Below, piece by piece: positions 12,264-22,021 of a DNA stretch of 64,000 nucleotides. The position numbers and the translations under genes were made by a program. Source of the stretch: Escherichia coli (lineage in GTDB: Bacteria > Pseudomonadota > Gammaproteobacteria > Enterobacterales > Enterobacteriaceae). Every line of letters begins with the position of its first letter. Within the stretch, counting starts at the first letter, position 1. The DNA lies in assembly GCA_005400705.1 (NCBI GenBank), contig GCA_005400705.1_4079.1. The stretch is one strand, 5' to 3'. The notes below the pieces were generated by a model. It saw nothing but the letters and a program-made list of their open reading frames with translations. It was not told where the DNA came from and did no database searches.

Positions 12264-13103
12264 ATGACAAATAGACCAAAGCGTAAAAAGTATCTCAATA
12301 ATGCTGATTTACTGCGTGAAATACAAAAAAGTAAAATTTCATATTGCTGGTTATTAGACAAATCATATAGTATGTATGATTATATTGTTTTTCATGAGTC
12401 AGAAATTACTGCTGAGTTACTAGAAAAAGCTAAGGCAGCCCGAATTAAACGACTGAACAATGAAATGCTTGATAGTATTCGTGAAAAGGAAAATATGAGT
12501 GCTAAAAAAGCTAAAGAATATGCAGATGAACACAATTTAGTTATCACTGACGTTCCAATTGATGAAGTTGTTATTCGTGTTATTACAGATGAACATATTC
12601 CACCAGATACTAGAGTTAACTTTGAACCATTCAAGCATTATATTGTAGATAATGAAGGTATTCTCTATGAAGTTTGTCGTTCTCACTGGAAAGGCGACCT
12701 TGAAACTGGTGAATTCAGTACTGTTCATGGTAAAATTACAAATGAACTTGGGAAGATGTTCATTAAACTTGCAGAGGAAATCTCACACAAATCTAATTAC
12801 AGAAACTATACATACTTAGATGAAATGATGGGTGATGCAAGAATACAATTAGTTAAAAACGCACTTCTCTTTAAAGAGAGCATTCTTTATAAAAAAGATA
12901 AACCAGCAGTTCAGCTAAATCCTTTCTCTTACTATACATCATTCGTAAACAATAGTTTTCGTTCTATATTGAATAGTGAGAAAAATGTTCGAAATATACG
13001 TGATGATTTACTTGAAATGCATGGCTTTACGCCATCACATACACGTCAAATTGAAATTGAATTGAACATGATTGAAAGGAAAAATGAAGATGGCTCTGTT
13101 TGA
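12264..13103 (+). CDS. gp55: late-transcription sigma factor (gp55-like), extended C-terminus
   Basis: N-terminal KYLNNADLLREIQKSK resembles gp55 N-terminus as recalled; T4-like synteny 55-47-46; GGAGAG RBS. Confidence 0.6.
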   Translation: MTNRPKRKKYLNNADLLREIQKSKISYCWLLDKSYSMYDYIVFHESEITAELLEKAKAARIKRLNNEMLDSIREKENMSAKKAKEYADEHNLVITDVPIDEVVIRVITDEHIPPDTRVNFEPFKHYIVDNEGILYEVCRSHWKGDLETGEFSTVHGKITNELGKMFIKLAEEISHKSNYRNYTYLDEMMGDARIQLVKNALLFKESILYKKDKPAVQLNPFSYYTSFVNNSFRSILNSEKNVRNIRDDLLEMHGFTPSHTRQIEIELNMIERKNEDGSV

Positions 13104-14129: not shown

Positions 14130-16277
14130 ATGCTAAACATTACACGTATATCTATGAGGAACTTCTTTTCATTTGGTAATGCACCACAATCAATTGATTT
14201 GAATGGTTCCGACATTTCATTAGTACTGGGTCAAAATAATGATGCAGTTATTGAAGGTGGTGACAGTACCGGACGTCGAAATGGTGTAGGGAAAAGTGCT
14301 ATTATTCAAGGATTAGTTTTTGGATTATTTGGTAAAAGTATTGGTAATGATATTAAAATTCCGAACCTAGTCAATAAAACTAATGGCAAAAATTGTGAAG
14401 TAGTTGTAGAGTTTGAAAAAGATGGTGTACAATATCTGGTTGAACGTGGGAGAAGTCCCACGTATTTCAATTTTGTTACTTTAGGGAAAGATAATAAAAT
14501 TGAAGATGAATCAAGGGGAGAAAAGAAAGACACACAAGAAGATTTGAATGAAATTCTTGGTATATCTCAATTATTATTTGAACATATTGTAGTACTGAAT
14601 GCTAACGTTGAACCTTTCTTAGCTTTATCCACACAAAAACAACGTGATATGATAGAAGAACTTCTTGGAATAACACAGTTGACGGAAAAAGCTGAAATGC
14701 TAAAGGAGATGTATAAGGATACTAAACGTTTAGCCGAACAAGAAAAGTTCAAAAATGAAACTGTAGCTGCAAGTAATGAACGTATTCAAAAAAGTATTGA
14801 GACACTACAAGAACAGGCAAACCAGTTTGAAATTGATAAAAATAATAGAGTATCTAAGTTAAATGAAGAGTTGAATATATATAAAACTTTAGACTTTAAT
14901 GACCTCTATGAAGCTGCTGATATAAAAGAGAAAGCTCTTATTCATAACGCAAAGCGTGGGGAAATCGAACGCCGTGTACAAGAGTTGGCTTTAAAATTTG
15001 ATGCATATGACCGTGAACTTGAAAGATCTAAAAGAGAATTAAATCTAAGCATTGATAAGCTAAAAACTATTGATATTAGTGCAGAATTGGAAAATCATAA
15101 TGAGTTGGAGATATGGAAACAGTTAGAGGGTATTCTAAAAGAGAATAATAACCAAAAACGTTTCAAAGAACAAAAACTAAACTCACTAAAAATAGCTTTA
15201 AAAGGATATGAATGTTCAATTAATGCTGAAATTGACAAATTATCAACAGTTGAAAACAGCAAATGTCCACTTTGTATGTCTGAATTAGAACATAACGAAC
15301 ATACTTCTTCAATTAAAGACAAAATCCAAAGTACTATTAATGATCTTCAAGCTAAAATTGATAGTTCTTCTTCTGAAATTGAAACATTACTTCAAGAAAT
15401 TGATAGTATTGAGATTTTTGATATGCCACCTAAGCCTGTGACATATTATAATACACTTTCAGAAGCACAAATGCATGAACATAAGCTTCAAGAATTGGTC
15501 AGAAAGAGTGAAGAAGAACAAATAAACATCTATGCAAATGAACTTATGTCATCATATGATGAACTTAACTCATATGAACTAATGGAAGTTCCAGATACAT
15601 TAAACAAATATGAAGTTAAAGAGTTAGAAATGACTGTAAATTCATTATCACAGCAATTAGATCGTGAATTGAAGACTACTAACACATTTATTAGCCAAAT
15701 TAATACCCTGAAGACTGATTCTTTAGTACCAATCGATTATAGCGACTATAATAATCTTGATAAAATGTCAAATCACCAAGATTTCTTGGTTAAATTACTT
15801 TTAAACAAGGATTCTTATGTCCGTAAACGTATTATTGAGCAAAATATCTCATATTTGAATACACGACTTCAGTACTATATCGATATGTGCGGTTCTGAGC
15901 ATAATGTTGTGTTTTTGAATGATTTGAGTGTTGAAATTGAGAAGAGTGGACAGTACTTTGACTATAAACAGCTTAGTAGAGGTGAGCGTACAAGGGTAAA
16001 CATCGCATTATCTTGTGCTTTCCGTGATACATATGAGTCATTATACCAAAGTATTAATATTCTTATCATTGATGAGATGATTGACCAAGGTCTTGACTCA
16101 AGTGGTGTTCTACGTGTGTGGTCTATCTTCCAAGATATGGCTGCTGTACGTGGTAAGAACGTTTATGCTATTTCCCACAGAGAAGAGTTACTATCTAAGA
16201 CTGAAAAAATCCTCAAAGTTGTTAAAGAGGACGGTTTCAGTACTGTTGAATATGCAACCCTTGACGATGTTTTCTAA
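14130..16277 (+). CDS. gp46: recombination endonuclease subunit gp46 (Rad50/SbcC-like ATPase)
   Basis: Walker A RNGVGKSA; long coiled-coil middle with CPLC zinc-hook-like motif; C-terminal signature LSRGERTRVNIALS and Walker B ILIIDE. Confidence 0.8.
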   Translation: MLNITRISMRNFFSFGNAPQSIDLNGSDISLVLGQNNDAVIEGGDSTGRRNGVGKSAIIQGLVFGLFGKSIGNDIKIPNLVNKTNGKNCEVVVEFEKDGVQYLVERGRSPTYFNFVTLGKDNKIEDESRGEKKDTQEDLNEILGISQLLFEHIVVLNANVEPFLALSTQKQRDMIEELLGITQLTEKAEMLKEMYKDTKRLAEQEKFKNETVAASNERIQKSIETLQEQANQFEIDKNNRVSKLNEELNIYKTLDFNDLYEAADIKEKALIHNAKRGEIERRVQELALKFDAYDRELERSKRELNLSIDKLKTIDISAELENHNELEIWKQLEGILKENNNQKRFKEQKLNSLKIALKGYECSINAEIDKLSTVENSKCPLCMSELEHNEHTSSIKDKIQSTINDLQAKIDSSSSEIETLLQEIDSIEIFDMPPKPVTYYNTLSEAQMHEHKLQELVRKSEEEQINIYANELMSSYDELNSYELMEVPDTLNKYEVKELEMTVNSLSQQLDRELKTTNTFISQINTLKTDSLVPIDYSDYNNLDKMSNHQDFLVKLLLNKDSYVRKRIIEQNISYLNTRLQYYIDMCGSEHNVVFLNDLSVEIEKSGQYFDYKQLSRGERTRVNIALSCAFRDTYESLYQSINILIIDEMIDQGLDSSGVLRVWSIFQDMAAVRGKNVYAISHREELLSKTEKILKVVKEDGFSTVEYATLDDVF

Positions 16278-16288
16278 TTAAAGATAAA

Positions 16289-16311
16289 GGGAGCCTTAGC
16301 TCCCTTTTTTT
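16289..16311. terminator. bidirectional rho-independent terminator between gp46 and EndoVII-like gene
   Basis: GGGAGC-ctta-GCTCCC hairpin followed by TTTTTTT; overlaps minus-gene stop. Confidence 0.6.
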
Positions 16312-16787
16312 ATATCAACCATATTTAATTTACCGTCCTTAATCAGCTTTCTAGCTTGCTTTACACGAGCAGTAGTGTTACTACCAGGGACAACTCCTAA
16401 CCCTTCCAGAATCGCGTTTTGCTGTGTTGCTGGAAGCCTTTTAAACTTATTAACATCCACAGTTAGTGCTGTGTGATGTATGACTTGCTCTTCAGGTGGA
16501 ATGTTATTGTTCTTTTCAAGATAATCTGCCAGATTTCTTAGTACTTCATGAAGAGGTTTATCAGTTAAATGGCCCAGACAGCGTTTAAATGAATTTGCGA
16601 CCCTTCCTTCCCATCCATTCACCTCATTTTGAAGAACCTGTCTACAATGTTGATTTCCACCATGATAGTGGTCAAGTACTGGTTTAGTTATTTTTATTCC
16701 TATAATGGGGTCAATACCATTTTGTTTTTTTAGTAGTTCTTTTCTGTAAGCTGCTGCTTCATTGGGATTTTTCAATCTCTTTTTCAT
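16296..16787 (-). CDS. HNH-type nuclease, endonuclease VII-like
   Basis: 163 aa; LDHYHGGNQHCRQVLQNEVNGWEG resembles EndoVII/HNH motif pattern LDHDH...N...EG; antisense to flanking genes. Confidence 0.55.
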   Translation of the reverse strand: MKKRLKNPNEAAAYRKELLKKQNGIDPIIGIKITKPVLDHYHGGNQHCRQVLQNEVNGWEGRVANSFKRCLGHLTDKPLHEVLRNLADYLEKNNNIPPEEQVIHHTALTVDVNKFKRLPATQQNAILEGLGVVPGSNTTARVKQARKLIKDGKLNMVDIKKGS

Positions 16788-16847
16788 AGCGTTTTGTCCT
16801 GTTTCTGTAAATAATGTATATTAAAAAGTTTTGTGAGGTACACAAGA

Positions 16848-17804
16848 ATGGCTAAAATTACACAACAACAATTCATAGATAAATCAATGAATATTCATGG
16901 TAGTATTTACACATACAATAAAACAATATATGTCAATGCACACCATCCAATAACTGTTACGTGTAACATTCACGGTGACTTCACAGTAGTTCCTAATAAA
17001 CACATTTCTGCAAAACAAGGTTGTCCAGTTTGTTCTGATATTGCAAAGAAAGAACGAAAGTCTAAAAAATCTCTGGGGTCATTCTTCACTGAAGCTACCG
17101 AAGTTCATGGTGATAAGTATGATTACTCAAAAGTGTTTTTTAACATTCGTTCAGAAAAGATTACTATTATATGCAAAGAAAAAGGTCATGGTGAATTTAA
17201 TCAAGTAGTTAGTAATCATCTATCTGGACAAGGTTGCCCTGAATGTGCCAAAATTCAAAATGGATTAAAGAAGAGAACTCCAGAAGATGTGTTCTTTGAA
17301 GATTGTAAGTTCATACACATGGATAATTATGATTACTCTAATACAAAATATAATGGCATGTATGAAACCATTACACCATTATGTAAGAGACATGGGGAAT
17401 TCACCGTACTAGCTACTAAGCATTATCATAGAAAACAAGGGTGTCCAGTTTGTTCAGACCAAGAACTAAAATCAAAACCTGTTATTGAAATTCAGAATTT
17501 TTTAAAAACGTGTGATATAATGTTTGAAATGGAAAAGAAATTTGATAGTTGTAAAAACATCAATCATTTACCATTTGATTTTTATATTCCTGAACTTAAT
17601 CTACTAATAGAATATGATGGTATCCAACACTTCAAACCAATAGAATACTTCGGTGGAGAAGAAGGTTTAGCTGAACAACAACGAAATGATGAAATTAAGA
17701 ATAAGTATTGTTATGATAATAATATTACTTTACTTAGAATAAAGTATTCAGATGACCACATTAAAATTATAAAAGACTTCATATCAAAAAATATAAATTA
17801 TTGA
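16848..17804 (+). CDS. homing-endonuclease-like protein: N-terminal Zn-ribbon repeats plus C-terminal Vsr/DUF559-like PD-(D/E)XK nuclease domain
   Basis: Three repeats of HGxF...H...QGCPxC module; C-terminus LPFDFYIPELNLLIEYDGIQH typical of DUF559/Vsr-like fold; track start GTG 16833 trimmed to ATG 16848 with GAGG RBS. Confidence 0.6.
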   Translation: MAKITQQQFIDKSMNIHGSIYTYNKTIYVNAHHPITVTCNIHGDFTVVPNKHISAKQGCPVCSDIAKKERKSKKSLGSFFTEATEVHGDKYDYSKVFFNIRSEKITIICKEKGHGEFNQVVSNHLSGQGCPECAKIQNGLKKRTPEDVFFEDCKFIHMDNYDYSNTKYNGMYETITPLCKRHGEFTVLATKHYHRKQGCPVCSDQELKSKPVIEIQNFLKTCDIMFEMEKKFDSCKNINHLPFDFYIPELNLLIEYDGIQHFKPIEYFGGEEGLAEQQRNDEIKNKYCYDNNITLLRIKYSDDHIKIIKDFISKNINY

Positions 17805-17816
17805 ATAGTTTTTATG

Positions 17817-17851
17817 AACCAAGTAATGTTTTGTTACTTGGTTTTTTTATA
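17817..17851 (+). terminator. rho-independent terminator after homing-endonuclease-like gene
   Basis: AACCAAGTAA-tgttttg-TTACTTGGTT perfect 10-bp stem followed by TTTTTTTAT; second GTACT-a-AGTAC hairpin plus T-run at 17862-17887. Confidence 0.7.
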
Positions 17852-17896
17852 CTTCAAAAATGTACTAAGTACTTTTTTATTTTTTTATGATATTAG

Positions 17897-17925
17897 TGGG
17901 AAGATTTTAAAAATGGTGCTATAAT
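17897..17925 (+). promoter_or_regulatory. promoter, TGGGAA-N17-TATAAT class with TG extended -10
   Basis: TGGGAA 17897-17902, 17-nt spacer, TATAAT 17920-17925 preceded by GTGC; same architecture recurs at 7 other sites. Confidence 0.5.
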
Positions 17926-17931
17926 GTTTGT

Positions 17932-18387
17932 TGTAGTAATGACAATCCTGTTGAATGCAGAAATGCATATAAATTAGAACCTGATCCTATCGAAAATGTA
18001 GATGGCAGATGAGCAGTTCAACAGTGCGATGAGCAAAAGAAACCCGTTAGATGTGGGCATAGTTTGAACCCCTCACGGCAATGCGGCTCAATAAAGAACT
18101 CCGATAAGCATACAGAGAGTTCCTAGATAGACATATAAGGATCGCACCTTACCAGATTTGCTAAGGGAGTTTATTAAGTGATTTTAATAAACAGCCTGAA
18201 GTTTGATTGTATAGACTTTCAGGTGAGTGTCAGGATGATTAAGACTGACGACCGTTGCACATGACTGCGATAGAGAGAAACAGAGCAACCCGCTTTCGTT
18301 CTTAATATATTTTTAAGAAATTCGCAATACAATAAATGCTGAAACCATCAGCGTCAAGAAATAGAGACTTCATTGTCTCTTTTTTAT
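17932..18387 (+). ncRNA. candidate structured non-coding RNA (unknown family)
   Basis: About 455 nt between promoter and terminator with no ORF over 21 codons and no RBS; multiple hairpins incl. ATGCA-GAAA-TGCAT (GNRA loop), 9-bp GTTTATTAA/TTAATAAAC, CCTGAAG/CTTTCAGG, GTCAG/CTGAC; long-range complement GTGCGAT (18024-18030)/ATCGCAC (18141-18147). Confidence 0.3.
18363..18387 (+). terminator. rho-independent terminator closing the candidate ncRNA
   Basis: AGAGAC-ttcatt-GTCTCT hairpin followed by TTTTTT. Confidence 0.6.
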
Positions 18388-18603
18388 TGTCTTCATTCCC
18401 CTGCGGGGGGATGAAAATGTCCTCAACAAATCCCGTCAAGTATTAAATCTTTTAAAGTTCTTTATAATTAATTTAATTAAATGAATATGAGTTACGTAGT
18501 AACGAATATTCTTCAGCTAACGAATGAAATGAGTTAGATGAATCTAATAATATTAAAATTAATCCTTTCATAATTCAATTCAAATAATTCTGTAGTTTAA
18601 AAC

Positions 18604-18629
18604 CAAAAAAACCAGCAACAATGTGCTGG
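18604..18629 (-). terminator. rho-independent terminator after minus-strand late genes
   Basis: CCAGCA-acaatg-TGCTGG hairpin; plus-strand A-run = minus-strand T-run downstream of stop at 18641. Confidence 0.6.
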
Positions 18630-18640
18630 CTATATGAAAA

Positions 18641-18850
18641 TTAGTGCTTCTCGTTTTGTTTTTTAATTTTTTTATTAAAAGACTTAACTAATAAGTCTCT
18701 ATCTATTAATGGCATATTAAGGAGTGTTCCATAGTCAATGTTATCCATATATACAGAACATTCCATTAGTGCATTTTTGATTTCTGACTTATTCAGTTCT
18801 ATCTCCTTCAGTACTTCTTGTATTTCTTCAGGAGATGACTGGAGAAGCAT
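18641..18850 (-). CDS. hypothetical small late protein
   Basis: 69-aa ORF overlapping upstream gene stop by 1 nt (translational coupling). Confidence 0.45.
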   Translation of the reverse strand: MLLQSSPEEIQEVLKEIELNKSEIKNALMECSVYMDNIDYGTLLNMPLIDRDLLVKSFNKKIKKQNEKH

Positions 18851-19686
18851 TACTCGAAAAAATGACTAGGATCATATTTTAGTCCATCAATTTCCCATTG
18901 ATGATTACATCCATCACATTCTACTTCCATACTATGAGATACACCAATTTCAAGTACTTCATCCATTTTTTCACGAATTAGTTTAAGTACTCCCTTCGAT
19001 TGTTGTCCAAGCCATTCATTAATAAATTCTTTTTCAACTACTTCATCACCATCTGGTGTTATAATTTTTGCAATAACTCCACCAATCATATCGAAGTTAA
19101 GTTGAGCCATGTTTTCAAATACTTCAGAAAATATTTTTACTTTTTCATCTTTATCAATATCAGCAGTTTCAAGAAACTTAGTCTTCTGCTGCTCACTGAA
19201 CATGCGTTCAGCAAACGATGAATATTCTTTCCATGTCAGTGGTCTAAATTCTAAACGTAGTCCATTATCTAAATCAATTGATGGGATTTCTTCAAATGCT
19301 TGTGCAGTTTCAAGAAGATATGATAGATTACGTTCAAATCGACCTTCTTTTTCACATTCAGGACATACAACGTTAATATCATATGTTTCTTCTTTAGAAG
19401 CAACTTTAATAGCAATAAGAAGCATTTCAACGTCATTTACATACAACTCATCAGCGTCAATTACATTAGGAACACAGTTTTCAATAACACGGGATACTGC
19501 ATCTCCGTTTAGTAACATATCGGGGGTATTAAGTGTCATTTCATCACGTGCACTACGTGCACAAACTCCACATTTGACACCTTTTGGACCTAGAACTCCT
19601 TCTTTATAAGGAATAACGCCGTTTGTAACTAACTTAGTACTGATCTCTTCAATTTTAGTGTACTTAGCAAGTGGATTCATAGCCAT
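18850..19686 (-). CDS. hypothetical Cys-rich (putative zinc-binding) late protein
   Basis: 278 aa with CGVC, CPEC, CDGC motifs; GGAGA RBS; late-promoter element upstream. Confidence 0.55.
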   Translation of the reverse strand: MAMNPLAKYTKIEEISTKLVTNGVIPYKEGVLGPKGVKCGVCARSARDEMTLNTPDMLLNGDAVSRVIENCVPNVIDADELYVNDVEMLLIAIKVASKEETYDINVVCPECEKEGRFERNLSYLLETAQAFEEIPSIDLDNGLRLEFRPLTWKEYSSFAERMFSEQQKTKFLETADIDKDEKVKIFSEVFENMAQLNFDMIGGVIAKIITPDGDEVVEKEFINEWLGQQSKGVLKLIREKMDEVLEIGVSHSMEVECDGCNHQWEIDGLKYDPSHFFE

Positions 19687-19720
19687 TTTATTAAATCTCC
19701 ATGTAATAAATGTGTTTTAG

Positions 19721-19728
19721 TATTTATA
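19721..19728 (-). promoter_or_regulatory. T4-type late promoter TATAAATA for minus-strand gene starting at 19686
   Basis: plus tatttata in divergent intergenic region. Confidence 0.5.
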
Positions 19729-19816
19729 AGACTAAAAAAGATTAAATTAAACTAATTTTTATATTCTCTATAGTTTCATAAATATTTCTATAATACATCT
19801 ATTAAAAGGGAATGTT

Positions 19817-22021
19817 ATGGCTGGAAATACAAGTGATTACCTACTCCAGCAGTTGGTTAATCAAACTAAAGATAACAACGATAGTTTGAGTGCTATTCGT
19901 GAGTTATTGGCTGAAAATATAAAAAATGATAGAAAGAAATCCGGTTCTAAAAGTGGAAAACGTAATGGAAGTAATTCATCAAGTACTGGAAACCGTGGCT
20001 CTCGAACAAATAACAAAGCTGATGATGGTAAAGAATTTGGAAAAATATTCAAATCATTATCATCTGAAGTATCGAATGTCGGCAAAACTATGATGAGTAC
20101 GTCTGCAAACGTTAGCAATGTTGTAAACTCACTAGGAATGAGTGCATCTTCATTTGCTGGTTCATTAGCAATGATCCCAGGTCCAGTTGGTGCAGCAGCA
20201 TCTGCATTCAAATTGGTTGCTGACGCTGGTTTAGCAGTTTATAATGTGTTAAATGCACAGCTTGAAGTTTATAATAGAATAAACAGTGCTGGTGTCGCTC
20301 TATCTGAAGGTTACGGCTCCATATTAAAAGGTGCTGGTGCATCAATGATGAGTATTGATGCATTTGGTGAAGCATTACAAACTCATAGTGCCGTTGTTGC
20401 ACAATTAGATGGTGCATATGGTGATGGTGTTTCTACATTTGGTAAATTATTGGGTACTGTGCAACAAGCACAAAATCAATTAGGTTTATATGGTGTTTCT
20501 CAAAAAACATTAACTGATTTAACTGCACGTAATATTAAATTCCAAAAGCAATTTGGTGGAAGAGAAATGTTACGTAGTATGGATCAAGCAAAAAGTACTG
20601 AACAGTTTATCATGAGTATGACTAAGTTTAGTAAAAGTATGGGTGAGTCAGTTGATGCACTATTAAATAAAACACAAAACTTAGATAAATCATTAGACAC
20701 ACGTTCAATGCAAATCGCATTACAAAACTATTCTGGATTATCTAGTAAAGCAGCAGTTGCAACATCAAAAGCATTTAACGAAGCTGCTGCCAGTATGGGT
20801 GATGCTGGTGCAGATTTTCTACGTTTAATTTCACATCGTTTAACTATTGGTGGAGTACCAGATGATTTATTGACTCCAGTACTGAACCAATTTGCTGATT
20901 TAGGTGAGAACTTGGTACGTAGTGGTGTTACTGATTCACAAGAAATTCGCCGTCAACAATTGGAATTTGTTAAAAAGAACAAAGAACTAATAAAGCAAGA
21001 TTTATTAAATCAGATACAATTAGGAAACACTACGGCAGCAACCTTCAACCAACAACTACTTGATATGGAAGCTGCGATTAATGATCCTAAGAGTCAACCA
21101 GCAGATAAACTAACACAATTCACTGATAGATTCAATAGATGGATTAGTAAAGAATTTACTGAACCATTTAATAAAATGTATGCAGATACACAAAATTCTA
21201 TTGCGGATTACCTTACTGATATTGCAGACCGTACTGATGGTGCATGGGAATTCATCGGAGAGTTAGCACTTGATGGTTTTGGTTTGGTTCCTATTGCGAA
21301 AGATGCAGTTGCGTATTTGGATAGGATTGGTGGTGAGTTTGAGCAGTGGTTAGAAGGGTTAGGTACTGAAATTTTTGGTAGTGGATATAATAAAGTTTCA
21401 GAAGCATTTGATAGCTTTATGAATAACCTAATGGATCTTCCTGGTAAACTTTGGGATTCTGTTAAAGGTTGGTTTGGTGGTTCAGACGACAAAGTAAAAG
21501 TAGAAAACAATTCTGTTACCGATGGTGCAGAAAAAGTTAATAATTATTTTGAAGAAAAAATGAATTCATTTGGTGATTATATTTCTAGTTCATTTGATGG
21601 TTTTTTAAAATGGAATTCAAGTAGAAACTTTAAACAACCAAAACCCCTTGATGAATCAGTTGCTGAAAAACTTATTAGTAGTGGTCTTGAAAATAAGCCA
21701 AGAGCAACTGCGAGAATCGAAAAATCTGAACATGTTGCACCATATGTTACCATAACTCCAAAAACTTTTGATAAATCAGCATGGGGTCCAAATGAACCAC
21801 CAATTCAAGCTGAACCGGACGATTATGAGGCCATGAAAGCGATGATAAATAGTGGTAGTAGTATGGCAAATGCTAATAATAATGCCACAATATCAGAAGA
21901 CATGAAAGAGTTACTTAAAAAACTTGCTGATGTTAATGAGCAATCTCTATCTGCTGTGCAACAGACAAATAACTATCTAAGAACTATCTCTGAAAACACT
22001 CAAGGTGAGAGAAACAGTTAA
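19817..22021 (+). CDS. large hypothetical protein with N-terminal basic Gly/Ser/Asn-rich low-complexity segment; possible virion protein
   Basis: 734-aa ORF immediately upstream of portal gene; TATAAT at about 19789-19794; no catalytic motif recognised. Confidence 0.55.
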   Translation: MAGNTSDYLLQQLVNQTKDNNDSLSAIRELLAENIKNDRKKSGSKSGKRNGSNSSSTGNRGSRTNNKADDGKEFGKIFKSLSSEVSNVGKTMMSTSANVSNVVNSLGMSASSFAGSLAMIPGPVGAAASAFKLVADAGLAVYNVLNAQLEVYNRINSAGVALSEGYGSILKGAGASMMSIDAFGEALQTHSAVVAQLDGAYGDGVSTFGKLLGTVQQAQNQLGLYGVSQKTLTDLTARNIKFQKQFGGREMLRSMDQAKSTEQFIMSMTKFSKSMGESVDALLNKTQNLDKSLDTRSMQIALQNYSGLSSKAAVATSKAFNEAAASMGDAGADFLRLISHRLTIGGVPDDLLTPVLNQFADLGENLVRSGVTDSQEIRRQQLEFVKKNKELIKQDLLNQIQLGNTTAATFNQQLLDMEAAINDPKSQPADKLTQFTDRFNRWISKEFTEPFNKMYADTQNSIADYLTDIADRTDGAWEFIGELALDGFGLVPIAKDAVAYLDRIGGEFEQWLEGLGTEIFGSGYNKVSEAFDSFMNNLMDLPGKLWDSVKGWFGGSDDKVKVENNSVTDGAEKVNNYFEEKMNSFGDYISSSFDGFLKWNSSRNFKQPKPLDESVAEKLISSGLENKPRATARIEKSEHVAPYVTITPKTFDKSAWGPNEPPIQAEPDDYEAMKAMINSGSSMANANNNATISEDMKELLKKLADVNEQSLSAVQQTNNYLRTISENTQGERNS

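Follow-up and report, generated by a model that had tools for sequence, protein, structure and literature searches.

ROOL and GOLLD, large ornate RNAs, are encoded in phages and prophages too, and their structures have been determined by cryo-electron microscopy (PMC12286853). The jumbo phage PA5oct produces four plus-strand "putative lncRNAs" (long non-coding RNAs), ncRNA001-004, of 236-619 nucleotides (nt), two of which are highly expressed throughout infection (PMC7318152). Structured transcripts are also known from replication origins, for instance ColE1 RNA II and the T4 origin transcripts. The subject of this analysis is a block at positions 16296-18640 of a 64,000-nt stretch of DNA (the window), contig GCA_005400705.1_4079.1 of an Escherichia coli assembly. 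The block holds an endonuclease VII gene, a second nuclease gene and a gene for a structured non-coding RNA. The source of the window is an Asteriusvirus (121Q/PBECO4-like, Rak2-like group), a jumbo phage of ~350 kb. The segment 16200-18700 is 99.8% identical to the Escherichia phage records OR845138.1 (EC22.5-2) and OR844650.1, both unannotated, and ~93% identical to 121Q, PBECO4, G17, SP27 and phAPEC6.

Like GOLLD, ROOL and OLE, the RNA is large (~500-620 nt), non-coding and phage-encoded, with multiple pseudoknots supported by covariation and no linked protein partner. Unlike them, it occurs as 4-5 diverged paralogues per genome in most phages and is restricted to one ~350-kb enterobacterial phage clade plus a rare island copy. 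It matches none of their Rfam models, and the window has no tRNA genes (ARAGORN found neither tRNA nor tmRNA in it). With ColE1 RNA II and the T4 origin transcripts it has in common a ~500-nt structured transcript, a strong host-type promoter, and G- or C-rich runs with an AT-rich 3' side; as T4 has several origins, so these phage genomes have several copies of the cassette. It differs from them in the terminator that precedes the AT-rich region, in a far more complex fold and in the lack of sequence similarity. PA5oct, which is distantly related, offers an analogy only. Homology was rejected for ncRNA001 and ncRNA002, the two compared: they give no nhmmer match, and the invariant motifs (GACCGT, ACCCGC, AAGGGA, CACGGC and others) are absent from them, one stray GATAGA hexamer in ncRNA001 being the sole family motif present.

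By every test run, the RNA appears to be a new family of large structured RNA. The block as a whole consists of three independent parts, namely a core endonuclease VII gene, a homing-endonuclease-like insertion and a self-contained RNA gene, the product of which would probably act early and in trans; confidence in the complete reading is somewhat better than even.

A self-contained, strand-specific RNA gene

The structure of the RNA was derived from an alignment (A1) of 29 non-redundant full-length copies, in which conserved blocks are separated by insertions of variable length. RNAalifold predicted 79 pairs, 49 of them with compensatory double changes; three crossing helices came in addition from an unbiased search for covarying columns that stack. 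The curated structure consists of 86 pairs in 17 helices. Standard pairs are formed in 96.5% of the cells, against 36-43% in slid controls, in which the 3' pairing partners were shifted, and 81.5% in shuffles. Both sides have changed in 58 of the 86 pairs, against 10-24 in the slid controls and 34.3 +/- 2.7 in the shuffles (0 of 500 reach the observed number), and the covariation score is 0.437, against ~0.06 and 0.160, respectively. The unit is thus a structured non-coding RNA whose pairs have been kept by compensatory change.

The fold includes three pseudoknots (Table 1). In pseudoknot a, columns 182 and 232 switch from G-C to A-U at 19:10 with zero exceptions. Pseudoknot b is formed by helices 9 and 10, which both show compensatory changes and are 99-100% paired. 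Helices 11 and 13 of pseudoknot c are 100% paired, with three double-change pairs each. The structure also has invariant G-U pairs at columns 365/376, 367/374 and 444/465, and the fold is therefore specific to the plus strand.

The RNA is not a disguised coding sequence. No reading frame is conserved among the copies: the longest run without a stop codon changes its strand, frame and position from one copy to the next, and within 17805-18640 of the window no stop-free stretch exceeds 46 codons. Indel runs that are not multiples of three make up 423 of 507 (84, 350 and 73 runs leave remainders of 0, 1 and 2). A hidden small open reading frame (ORF), a 28-codon GTG frame following a Shine-Dalgarno-like AAGGGAG, was rejected; its frame and length are not conserved. 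A switch in which CCUUA would pair with the invariant downstream CUAAGGGAG was also rejected, as changes in the hairpin are not matched by covariation in the downstream copy.

Rfam 15 gave no match at the gathering score in the window. At E <= 5-10, copies A, B and D and the K64-1 copy (750-880 nt each) gave scattered sub-threshold matches to terminators and unrelated small RNAs, none of which recurred. A full-text literature search found no description of this RNA and no transcriptome study of an Asteriusvirus.

A ~40-nt hairpin module resembling UUUUUACAAUAUAGAUCCGUCCAAAAUU is found in two different helices of different paralogues (A1 columns 300-345 and 485-512). It is missing from the window copy but present in copy A of phage UE-S1 (locus L011, 1537-1694), whose 5' end the annotators of UE-S1 labelled a "repeat_region". 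The hairpin has the appearance of a plug-in element of the RNA, relocated from one position to another.

The gene begins with a promoter of host type. A TGnTATAAT box lies ~20-40 nt 5' of the conserved RNA in most copies (~15 nt in the window copy), including those of other phages and of an E. coli island. In EC22.5-2 it precedes three of the four copies; copy C has GATATAAT. The transcription start is predicted at ~17932. The extended -10 sequence TGCTATAAT has six occurrences in the window, and additional early transcription units may begin at those other than 17917. GC content is 0.40-0.46 at 17925-18150 and 0.19-0.27 in the flanks.

Toward the 3' end the conserved RNA contains an intrinsic terminator whose stem (helix 16) covaries in all five pairs across the copies; this hairpin is missing in copies B and D. 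The C4/G6 hairpin that follows (helix 17) is conserved, with a double change in one pair only, and the conserved tail CAAAUC(C/U)CGUCA ends at 18440. Beyond the tail an AT-rich extension was aligned. Its palindrome and repeats belong to a 3' extension conserved across phages, and the AT-rich region is therefore a conserved part of the RNA unit. The last hairpin of the extension covaries, occurring as CAUUC/GAAUG, CAAUC/GAUUG, CAUAC/GUAUG and CUAAC/GUUAG, with a flanking switch from U-A to A-U.

A previous reading of the DNA, the first-pass annotation, had proposed a promoter-to-terminator non-coding unit at this place. The unit was confirmed, with TGCTATAAT at 17917-17925, the terminator at ~18363-18380 and no ORF. 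The AT-rich features given for the region are also present: AACGAAT does occur twice, at 18501 and 18519, and the palindrome GTTACGTAGTAAC had been placed one base off, at 18492-18504 instead of 18491-18503.

In many copies the CGUCA tail is followed directly by a motif resembling GUAUAAAU or TATAAATA; the window copy has AGTATTAAAT there (18441-18470). The motif is similar to the consensus that has been reported for late promoters of CBB and T4 (PMC5259590).

Paralogues in jumbo phages and copies in bacterial islands

The distribution of the RNA was determined by blastn with 17900-18420 as the query. There were 72 matching phage records, 61 of which cover at least 80% of the query, with identities of 67-100%. 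All 72 are Rak2-like jumbo phages, infecting Escherichia, Salmonella, Klebsiella, Erwinia, Yersinia, Cronobacter, Pectobacterium, Serratia and Xanthomonas. Most records have the RNA in 4-5 places and the Klebsiella RaK2/K64-1 group in two. The 352-kb genome of EC22.5-2 has four copies, all on the same strand, at ~90.0, 143.4, 223.2 (the window copy) and 333.2 kb; among themselves they are 70-85% identical. Further copies were found by pattern scans of IMG/VR and metagenomes; a degenerate-pattern scan of IMG/VR matched ~350-kb contigs plus shorter contigs resembling fragments. The exact-pattern scans of genome and metagenome collections used TAGAGAGAAAC and missed the E. coli island variant TGAGAGAAAC, so that bacterial occurrences are under-sampled.

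The copies occupy fixed places. Around copy A, the copy in the window, the order gp46, endonuclease VII (minus strand), non-coding unit, small ORF (minus), baseplate hub (minus) is found in G17, UE-S1, EJP2, Salmonella phage Munch and Erwinia phage Hallingskeid, and both copy A and copy B keep their places from genus to genus. The other three copies of 121Q fall in annotation gaps: one after a sigma-factor gene, one after a structural protein gene and the third ahead of a hypothetical gene, a DNA methyltransferase and a cytidyltransferase, a context in which a K64-1 copy is also found. Copies A to D thus stand in four unrelated contexts, and no protein neighbour is shared among them. The gene directly upstream of copy D (121Q gene 167) is a second one annotated as a sigma factor, besides the ORF upstream of the gp47 gene.

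A neighbour-joining tree was constructed from 409 well-aligned columns. Copies of one genome fall into different clades (CBB, Serratia phage BF, Yersinia phage fHe-Yen9-04 and two uncultivated genomes), and each paralogue clade spans several genera, the gp46-proximal "A" copies of Escherichia, Salmonella and Erwinia phages grouping together. Because copies of the same genome split into multi-genus clades, the duplications must have preceded the divergence of the genera, with no homogenisation since; the paralogue types are thus older than the phage genera.

In the annotations these loci are mostly blank or carry small "hypothetical proteins", and several genomes list 3-5 tiny ones. Other labels given to the RNA region are "prohead core scaffolding protein and protease" in CRJP21 and "RIP and coiled-coil domain-containing 2" in phAPEC6. 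Protein annotations across the RNA loci are probably artefacts.

The RNA is also found in bacteria. In a blastn search of 5,426 complete E. coli genomes, two chromosomes matched. The one examined, E. coli LR-29-1, has a full-length homologue (419.6 bits) with 81 of the 86 pairs intact and 84.7% identity to a copy of Serratia phage BF. Its promoter type, terminator, 3' hairpin and tail are the same as in the phages. It lies in a ~10.7-kb island integrated beside ffs. The island encodes a tyrosine integrase split by IS3, a small resolvase and the candidate defence systems PDC-M45 (DuOB, DUF488, mSLOG-DUF4326) and PDC-S16.

Small integrative elements of the kind seen in LR-29-1 form a family that occurs throughout the Enterobacterales. 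Members (loci L135-L150) are 6-12 kb long and have a tyrosine or large-serine integrase, a helicase-like protein of 460-498 amino acids (aa), often a CI/Cro-like switch, a 257-aa membrane protein with a 118-aa secreted partner (hyp257/hyp118), cargo and a small resolvase. The variable defence cargo includes SMODS/SLATT, SIR2, PDC-M45 and PDC-S16. In its make-up the family is reminiscent of satellites or defence islands, and a separate study of it may be worthwhile. In LR-29-1 (locus L131, 12540-13257), 700 nt without annotation between the RNA and the 257-aa gene are 76-84% identical to Klebsiella and Yersinia islands and hold a direct repeat, ATCGATCGTTATTATCGATCGTT, at ~13000-13030; this could be the origin or operator region of the island.

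In the other hyp257/hyp118 islands sampled (Klebsiella, Raoultella, Yersinia, Phytobacter and Rouxiella) the full RNA was not found, so that it is confined here to the two E. coli genomes. Klebsiella and Raoultella islands at the same ffs site carry a minimal frame instead: a promoter TGGGAT-N17-TGTGATATAAT, ~60 nt, a terminator, the 3' hairpin and a CAAATCTCGTCA tail. Their 3' module matches positions 407-515 of the RNA model (nhmmer E 3e-11). A downstream element of the ACG(A/C)AGTGAGTAC type is common to the phage cassettes and most sampled islands. This comparison suggests that the promoter and the terminator/3' module would form a separable frame, of which the ~440-nt pseudoknotted domain would be the payload.

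Ten island proteins searched by tblastn against the closest phage genome gave no match. In an earlier search against all fetched loci, the DUF4326 protein was the only island protein that matched, elsewhere in the closest phage genome. The phage protein with the DUF4326 domain (locus L005, 30356-30673; ~130.4 kb in EC22.5-2) is 41% identical to the C-terminal half of the island mSLOG-DUF4326 protein and could be a counterpart of the defence-island domain. A gene upstream of the island RNA, hyp303, was considered as a linked partner and rejected; locus L132, the only other context with flanking DNA, has no RNA, and two further contexts are short fragments.

The nuclease genes and other neighbours

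The features of the block and its immediate surroundings are listed in Table 1.

Table 1. Coordinates of genes, transcription signals and RNA elements in the window
Feature	Position	Strand	Description
gp46/SbcC-like recombination nuclease subunit	14130..16277	+	715-aa ORF; context only
Bidirectional terminator hairpin at 3' ends of gp46 and endonuclease VII genes	16286..16307	both	9-bp stem
Endonuclease VII homologue	16296-16787	-	163-aa ORF; PHROG 423; core gene
Zn-ribbon-repeat / putative Vsr(DUF559)-like nuclease gene	16848..17804	+	318 aa; strain-specific insertion
Intrinsic terminator of nuclease gene	17816..17851	+	Hairpin 17816-17844, 13-bp stem and U-run, -13.2 kcal/mol
Weak hairpin and T-run	~17862-17885	+	4 bp, -3.4 kcal/mol
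RNA-gene promoter (predicted)	17897..17925	+	-35-like TGGGAA, 17-bp spacer, extended -10 TGCTATAAT at 17917-17925
Whole non-coding unit	~17932-18556	+	Promoter, conserved structured RNA, terminator, 3' extension
Conserved structured RNA, copy A of four paralogues	17941..18440	+	nhmmer 463.6 bits over 17942-18440
Pseudoknot a	18081..18134	+	AUG 18081-18083 with CAU 18132-18134
Pseudoknot b	18200..18333	+	Hexaloop AUUGUA 18206-18211 of hairpin 18200-18217 with UACAAU 18328-18333
Pseudoknot c	18254..18297	+	GUUGC 18254-18258/GCAAC 18285-18289 crosses GAGAG 18273-18277/CUUUC 18293-18297
Intrinsic terminator inside cassette	18364..18387	+	GAGAC/GUCUC hairpin ~18363-18380 and U-run, -10.0 kcal/mol
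3' module: C4/G6 hairpin and CAAAUCCCGUCA tail	18393..18440	+	Hairpin 18393-18414, -16.9 kcal/mol
AT-rich 3' extension	18441..18556	+	From alignment of 150 nt downstream of 29 copies; GC 0.20
UGAAUUGAG-like box	18480	+	Part of conserved 3' extension
Hairpin/palindrome GTTACGTAGTAAC	18491-18503	+	Part of conserved 3' extension
ACGAA repeats (AACGAAT)	18501, 18519	+	Part of conserved 3' extension
Last hairpin CUAAC/GUUAG	18517-18537	+	Part of conserved 3' extension; covaries
Terminator of convergent minus-strand genes	18610..18631	-	Predicted; annotated in G17
69-aa ORF upstream of baseplate hub gene	18641..18850	-	phrog_18291, E 1.6e-36; context

The 163-aa protein matches PHROG 423 "endonuclease VII" with E 3.5e-32 over residues 2-150 of 163; no sequence match was found in Pfam, NCBIfam or PDB. 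The T4 enzyme, gp49, has a DHDH motif and CxxC zinc ligands. The 163-aa protein is like gp49 in that it matches the family over nearly its full length and has an H-x-H motif, DHYH, where gp49 has DHDH; unlike gp49, it has no evident CxxC zinc ligands in its sequence. The gene keeps its position and strand after the gp46/SbcC-like gene in G17, UE-S1, EJP2, Munch and Hallingskeid and uses a common bidirectional terminator with that gene. Because of this conservation of position and strand, the endonuclease VII gene is regarded as core in this phage group and not as accessory. A homologue of T4 endonuclease VII, CBB_248, is listed in the CBB genome paper (PMC5259590).

The second nuclease gene was listed as an ORF with a GTG start (16833-17804, plus strand, 323 aa). 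The ATG at 16848, which follows GAGG, is the likely start; it gives 318 aa, the length of the homologue in Munch. Domain searches, run on both nucleases, found in this protein three Zn-ribbon units (Pfam DUF723 and DUF4379, a treble-clef zinc domain, above cut-off) and at the C-terminus a weak match only, to DUF2726 (E 0.0032, 17.7 bits against a cut-off of 24.7 bits). A motif FDFY...LLIEYDGIQH is visible in the sequence. The protein has more than 7,000 homologues; among the 120 listed, several full-length ones have a precomputed PF04480 (DUF559) assignment, and several bear the source name "very-short-patch-repair endonuclease". In PHROGs it matches PHROG 559 at 1e-66 and phrog_9084 "homing endonuclease" at 2e-31, and the matching families are labelled HNH endonuclease, homing endonuclease or intron-encoded nuclease. 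A PDB sequence search gave no informative match. The first-pass annotation had thus named both genes correctly in kind, as an antisense EndoVII/HNH-like gene and a Zn-ribbon-repeat nuclease with a Vsr/DUF559-like C-terminus. Of the tandem terminators that it placed after the latter, the first is a strong hairpin (17816-17844) and the second only a weak 4-bp one.

The second nuclease gene varies among close relatives. Only two of the 57 matching records cover at least 80% of 16200-18700, and the next 18 listed lack ~1.1 kb. The gene is present in OR844650 and OR845138 and absent from 121Q, PBECO4, G17, SP27, phAPEC6 and others. In G17 only ~110 bp separate the endonuclease VII start codon from the RNA promoter, and similarity to the window resumes at ~17866; the boundaries of the insertion by this comparison are 16790-17865 only. 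The strong terminator falls inside the segment missing from G17 and hence belongs to the insertion. Munch has a homologue at exactly the same site (47% identity, E 1e-95). Relatives are found in 961 phage records with a patchy distribution, often in several copies per genome, from hosts that include Vibrio, Staphylococcus, Klebsiella and Lactococcus.

Because it is present or absent in relatives, has a same-site homologue in Munch and belongs to a patchy family, the gene is read as of the free-standing homing endonuclease type. It resembles such genes in being small, with its own terminator, in an intergenic spacer beside highly conserved genes; in varying among close relatives, with a diverged homologue at the same site in another genus; and in having several genomic paralogues and a family spread over unrelated phages. 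Unlike GIY-YIG or HNH homing enzymes, the protein has DUF723/DUF4379 Zn-ribbon repeats and a catalytic domain that is probably Vsr/DUF559-like (PD-(D/E)xK superfamily). Thus it appears to be a free-standing homing-endonuclease-like insertion, carried with its own terminator by a few genomes in the ~110-bp spacer. The gene would then be an ordinary, if well documented, mobile endonuclease insertion; the endonuclease VII gene is an ordinary core gene.

Searched against its own genome, the window nuclease gene matches four places. RNA copies A, C and D have genes with an HNH or homing endonuclease annotation within ~0.4-1.2 kb (121Q genes 170 and 513; window 16848-17804). It may be that the conserved RNA genes, or the sequences beside them, serve mobile endonucleases as target sites for homing.

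The gp46-like ORF has a Rad50 zinc-hook match near threshold (23.5 bits against a cut-off of 24.3 bits) and is labelled a recombination endonuclease subunit in the G17, 121Q and UE-S1 annotations; the terminator between it and the endonuclease VII gene is also annotated in G17, UE-S1 and Munch. The 69-aa ORF is conserved, with an identical protein in the G17 and 121Q annotations. Terminator-like sites are frequent in the region, 7 at 15800-19900 against 1.4 +/- 1.2 in shuffles. Upstream of the gp47 and gp46 genes is a 279-aa ORF (12264-13103, plus strand) that overlaps the start of the gp47-like ORF at 13072; in G17 the corresponding ORF bears the label "putative RNA polymerase sigma factor". 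A gp55-like late sigma factor is present in CBB (PMC5259590).

Possible functions of the RNA

The RNA gene is self-contained, strand-specific, highly structured, provided with host-type signals, old, multi-copy and independent of its neighbours. The following mechanism is proposed. Host RNA polymerase would transcribe the gene early in infection from the sigma-70-type promoter, and most transcripts would stop at the internal terminator, giving a stable RNA of ~455 nt. Folded into a particle, this RNA would work in trans, for example as a scaffold or decoy that binds proteins or as an "ornate" RNA that assembles with itself. Antisense pairing is probably not its mode of action, nor is it likely to be the leader of a neighbouring gene; copy A cannot be a leader because it faces convergent genes.

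Several points weigh against an early, trans-acting RNA. The transcription start, the 3' end and the abundance of the RNA are all inferred from sequence. Folded as a single sequence, the RNA exceeds shuffles in stability only moderately (z = -2.39). Conserved sequence runs ~170 nt beyond the terminator, and copies B and D are without a terminator; a longer functional RNA, or a pair of products, is therefore possible. Four to five paralogues at fixed loci on a single strand, with an AT-rich repeat region, fit a cis-acting role too. No gene was found that co-occurs with the RNA or ties it to a partner protein. Finally, the E. coli island copy could have arisen by a rare recombination of a phage cassette with the minimal cassette of an island and need not be a selected gene.

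The main rival takes the cis-acting role further and is considered unlikely. In it each copy is a replication origin, where host RNA polymerase makes a structured primer or R-loop RNA that stays hybridised at the C4/G6 element or the AT-rich repeats and primes DNA synthesis; the mobile islands would copy the cassette in order to be replicated or induced on phage infection. Its models are ColE1 RNA II, the T4 ori(uvsY) and ori(34) transcripts and the mitochondrial LSP-CSBII primer. T4 uses several origins that depend on transcripts of host RNA polymerase, and the dispersal of four copies on one strand of a 352-kb genome agrees with such an arrangement, as do the strong host-type promoter and the positions of copies A and B, kept across genera. 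The C4/G6 hairpin, the ACGAA repeats and the 20%-GC stretch lie downstream as the model would have them. In the islands, the 3' module and the ACG(A/C)AGTGAGTAC element flank the helicase-like gene, where satellite-type elements put their origin. However, in most copies an intrinsic terminator separates the RNA from the supposed origin region, and the RNA itself, with three pseudoknots and many invariant unpaired nucleotides, is far more elaborate than known primer RNAs. In the Klebsiella islands the frame persists although the large RNA is missing, so the role of the 3' module, whatever it is, does not depend on that RNA. No gene for an initiator or iteron-binding protein is linked to the copies, and GC skew follows gene orientation, with no switch seen at the copies.

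The other explanations are less likely than the origin cassette. That the RNA is a ribozyme or self-processing RNA, its conserved pseudoknotted core and junctions forming a catalytic centre for self-cleavage, ligation or RNA processing, is quite improbable. Its size, its pseudoknotted core and its invariant unpaired blocks (GAAAA.GUA, ACCCGU, CACGGCAAU, GAUAGA, CUAAGGGA and AAAC.GAGCAACCCG) are typical of large ribozymes, but no RNase P, group I or II intron or small self-cleaver model matched at E <= 10, even with short inputs and lax filters, and no flanking exons or target were identified. A hammerhead-like GAUGAG...CGAA was rejected, as the C3, U4, G5 and A6 positions are not conserved in A1. 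The resemblance of ACAGAGCAACCCGCUUUCG to RNase P CR-V is vague, with no model match to support it.

It is very doubtful that each copy is a cis-regulatory leader or attenuator of the gene downstream, with the internal terminator as the regulated element. A terminator within a conserved structure is the usual layout of riboswitches and attenuators, the 3' extension ends 10-40 nt before the ribosome-binding site of the next gene in co-directional contexts, and many copies have the TATAAATA-like late-promoter motif, reported for CBB (PMC5259590), after the CGUCA tail. Yet copy A has no downstream plus-strand gene in the phages examined and is equally conserved, 3' extension included; the downstream genes are wholly different between copies; and 450 nt with three pseudoknots far exceed known leaders.

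The single mobile or accessory island of the first-pass annotation, in which both nuclease genes and the non-coding unit came in as a single insertion, is barely credible and, for the endonuclease VII gene and the RNA, refuted by the comparison of genomes: the block does sit between two conserved modules, with two nuclease genes, strand changes and one truly variable part, the second nuclease gene, which is indeed an accessory insertion, but related genomes have the other two of the three parts in place in every relative examined, from at least three host genera and with or without that nuclease, and the insertion boundaries enclose 16790-17865 only.

The reading as three independent parts, with an early RNA acting in trans, is therefore retained as the probable one. 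Its most far-reaching form can be put forward only tentatively: a new class of large multi-pseudoknot RNA with four to five ancient, non-interchangeable paralogues in every Rak2-like jumbo phage, exchanged with integrative defence islands of enterobacteria by way of the common promoter/terminator frame, and serving either as a conflict particle or as an "origin RNA" of jumbo phages. As a conflict particle, the RNA alone or in a ribonucleoprotein would neutralise or mimic a host factor. As an origin RNA, it would be the first structured one of a jumbo phage, copied by satellite-like islands to sense or exploit infection.

Few large structured RNA classes are known in bacteria and phages, and RNase P, group I and II introns, tmRNA, OLE, GOLLD and ROOL each opened a field of their own. 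The family described here, of ~500 nt with unusually clean covariation, comes from culturable phages of E. coli, Salmonella, Klebsiella, Erwinia and Yersinia. If the origin explanation were true, its copies would be the first defined replication origins of the Rak2-like jumbo phages. Neither several ancient paralogues at fixed loci nor a defence-island copy built on a modular frame is seen in other ornate RNAs, and both would point to a role in infection.

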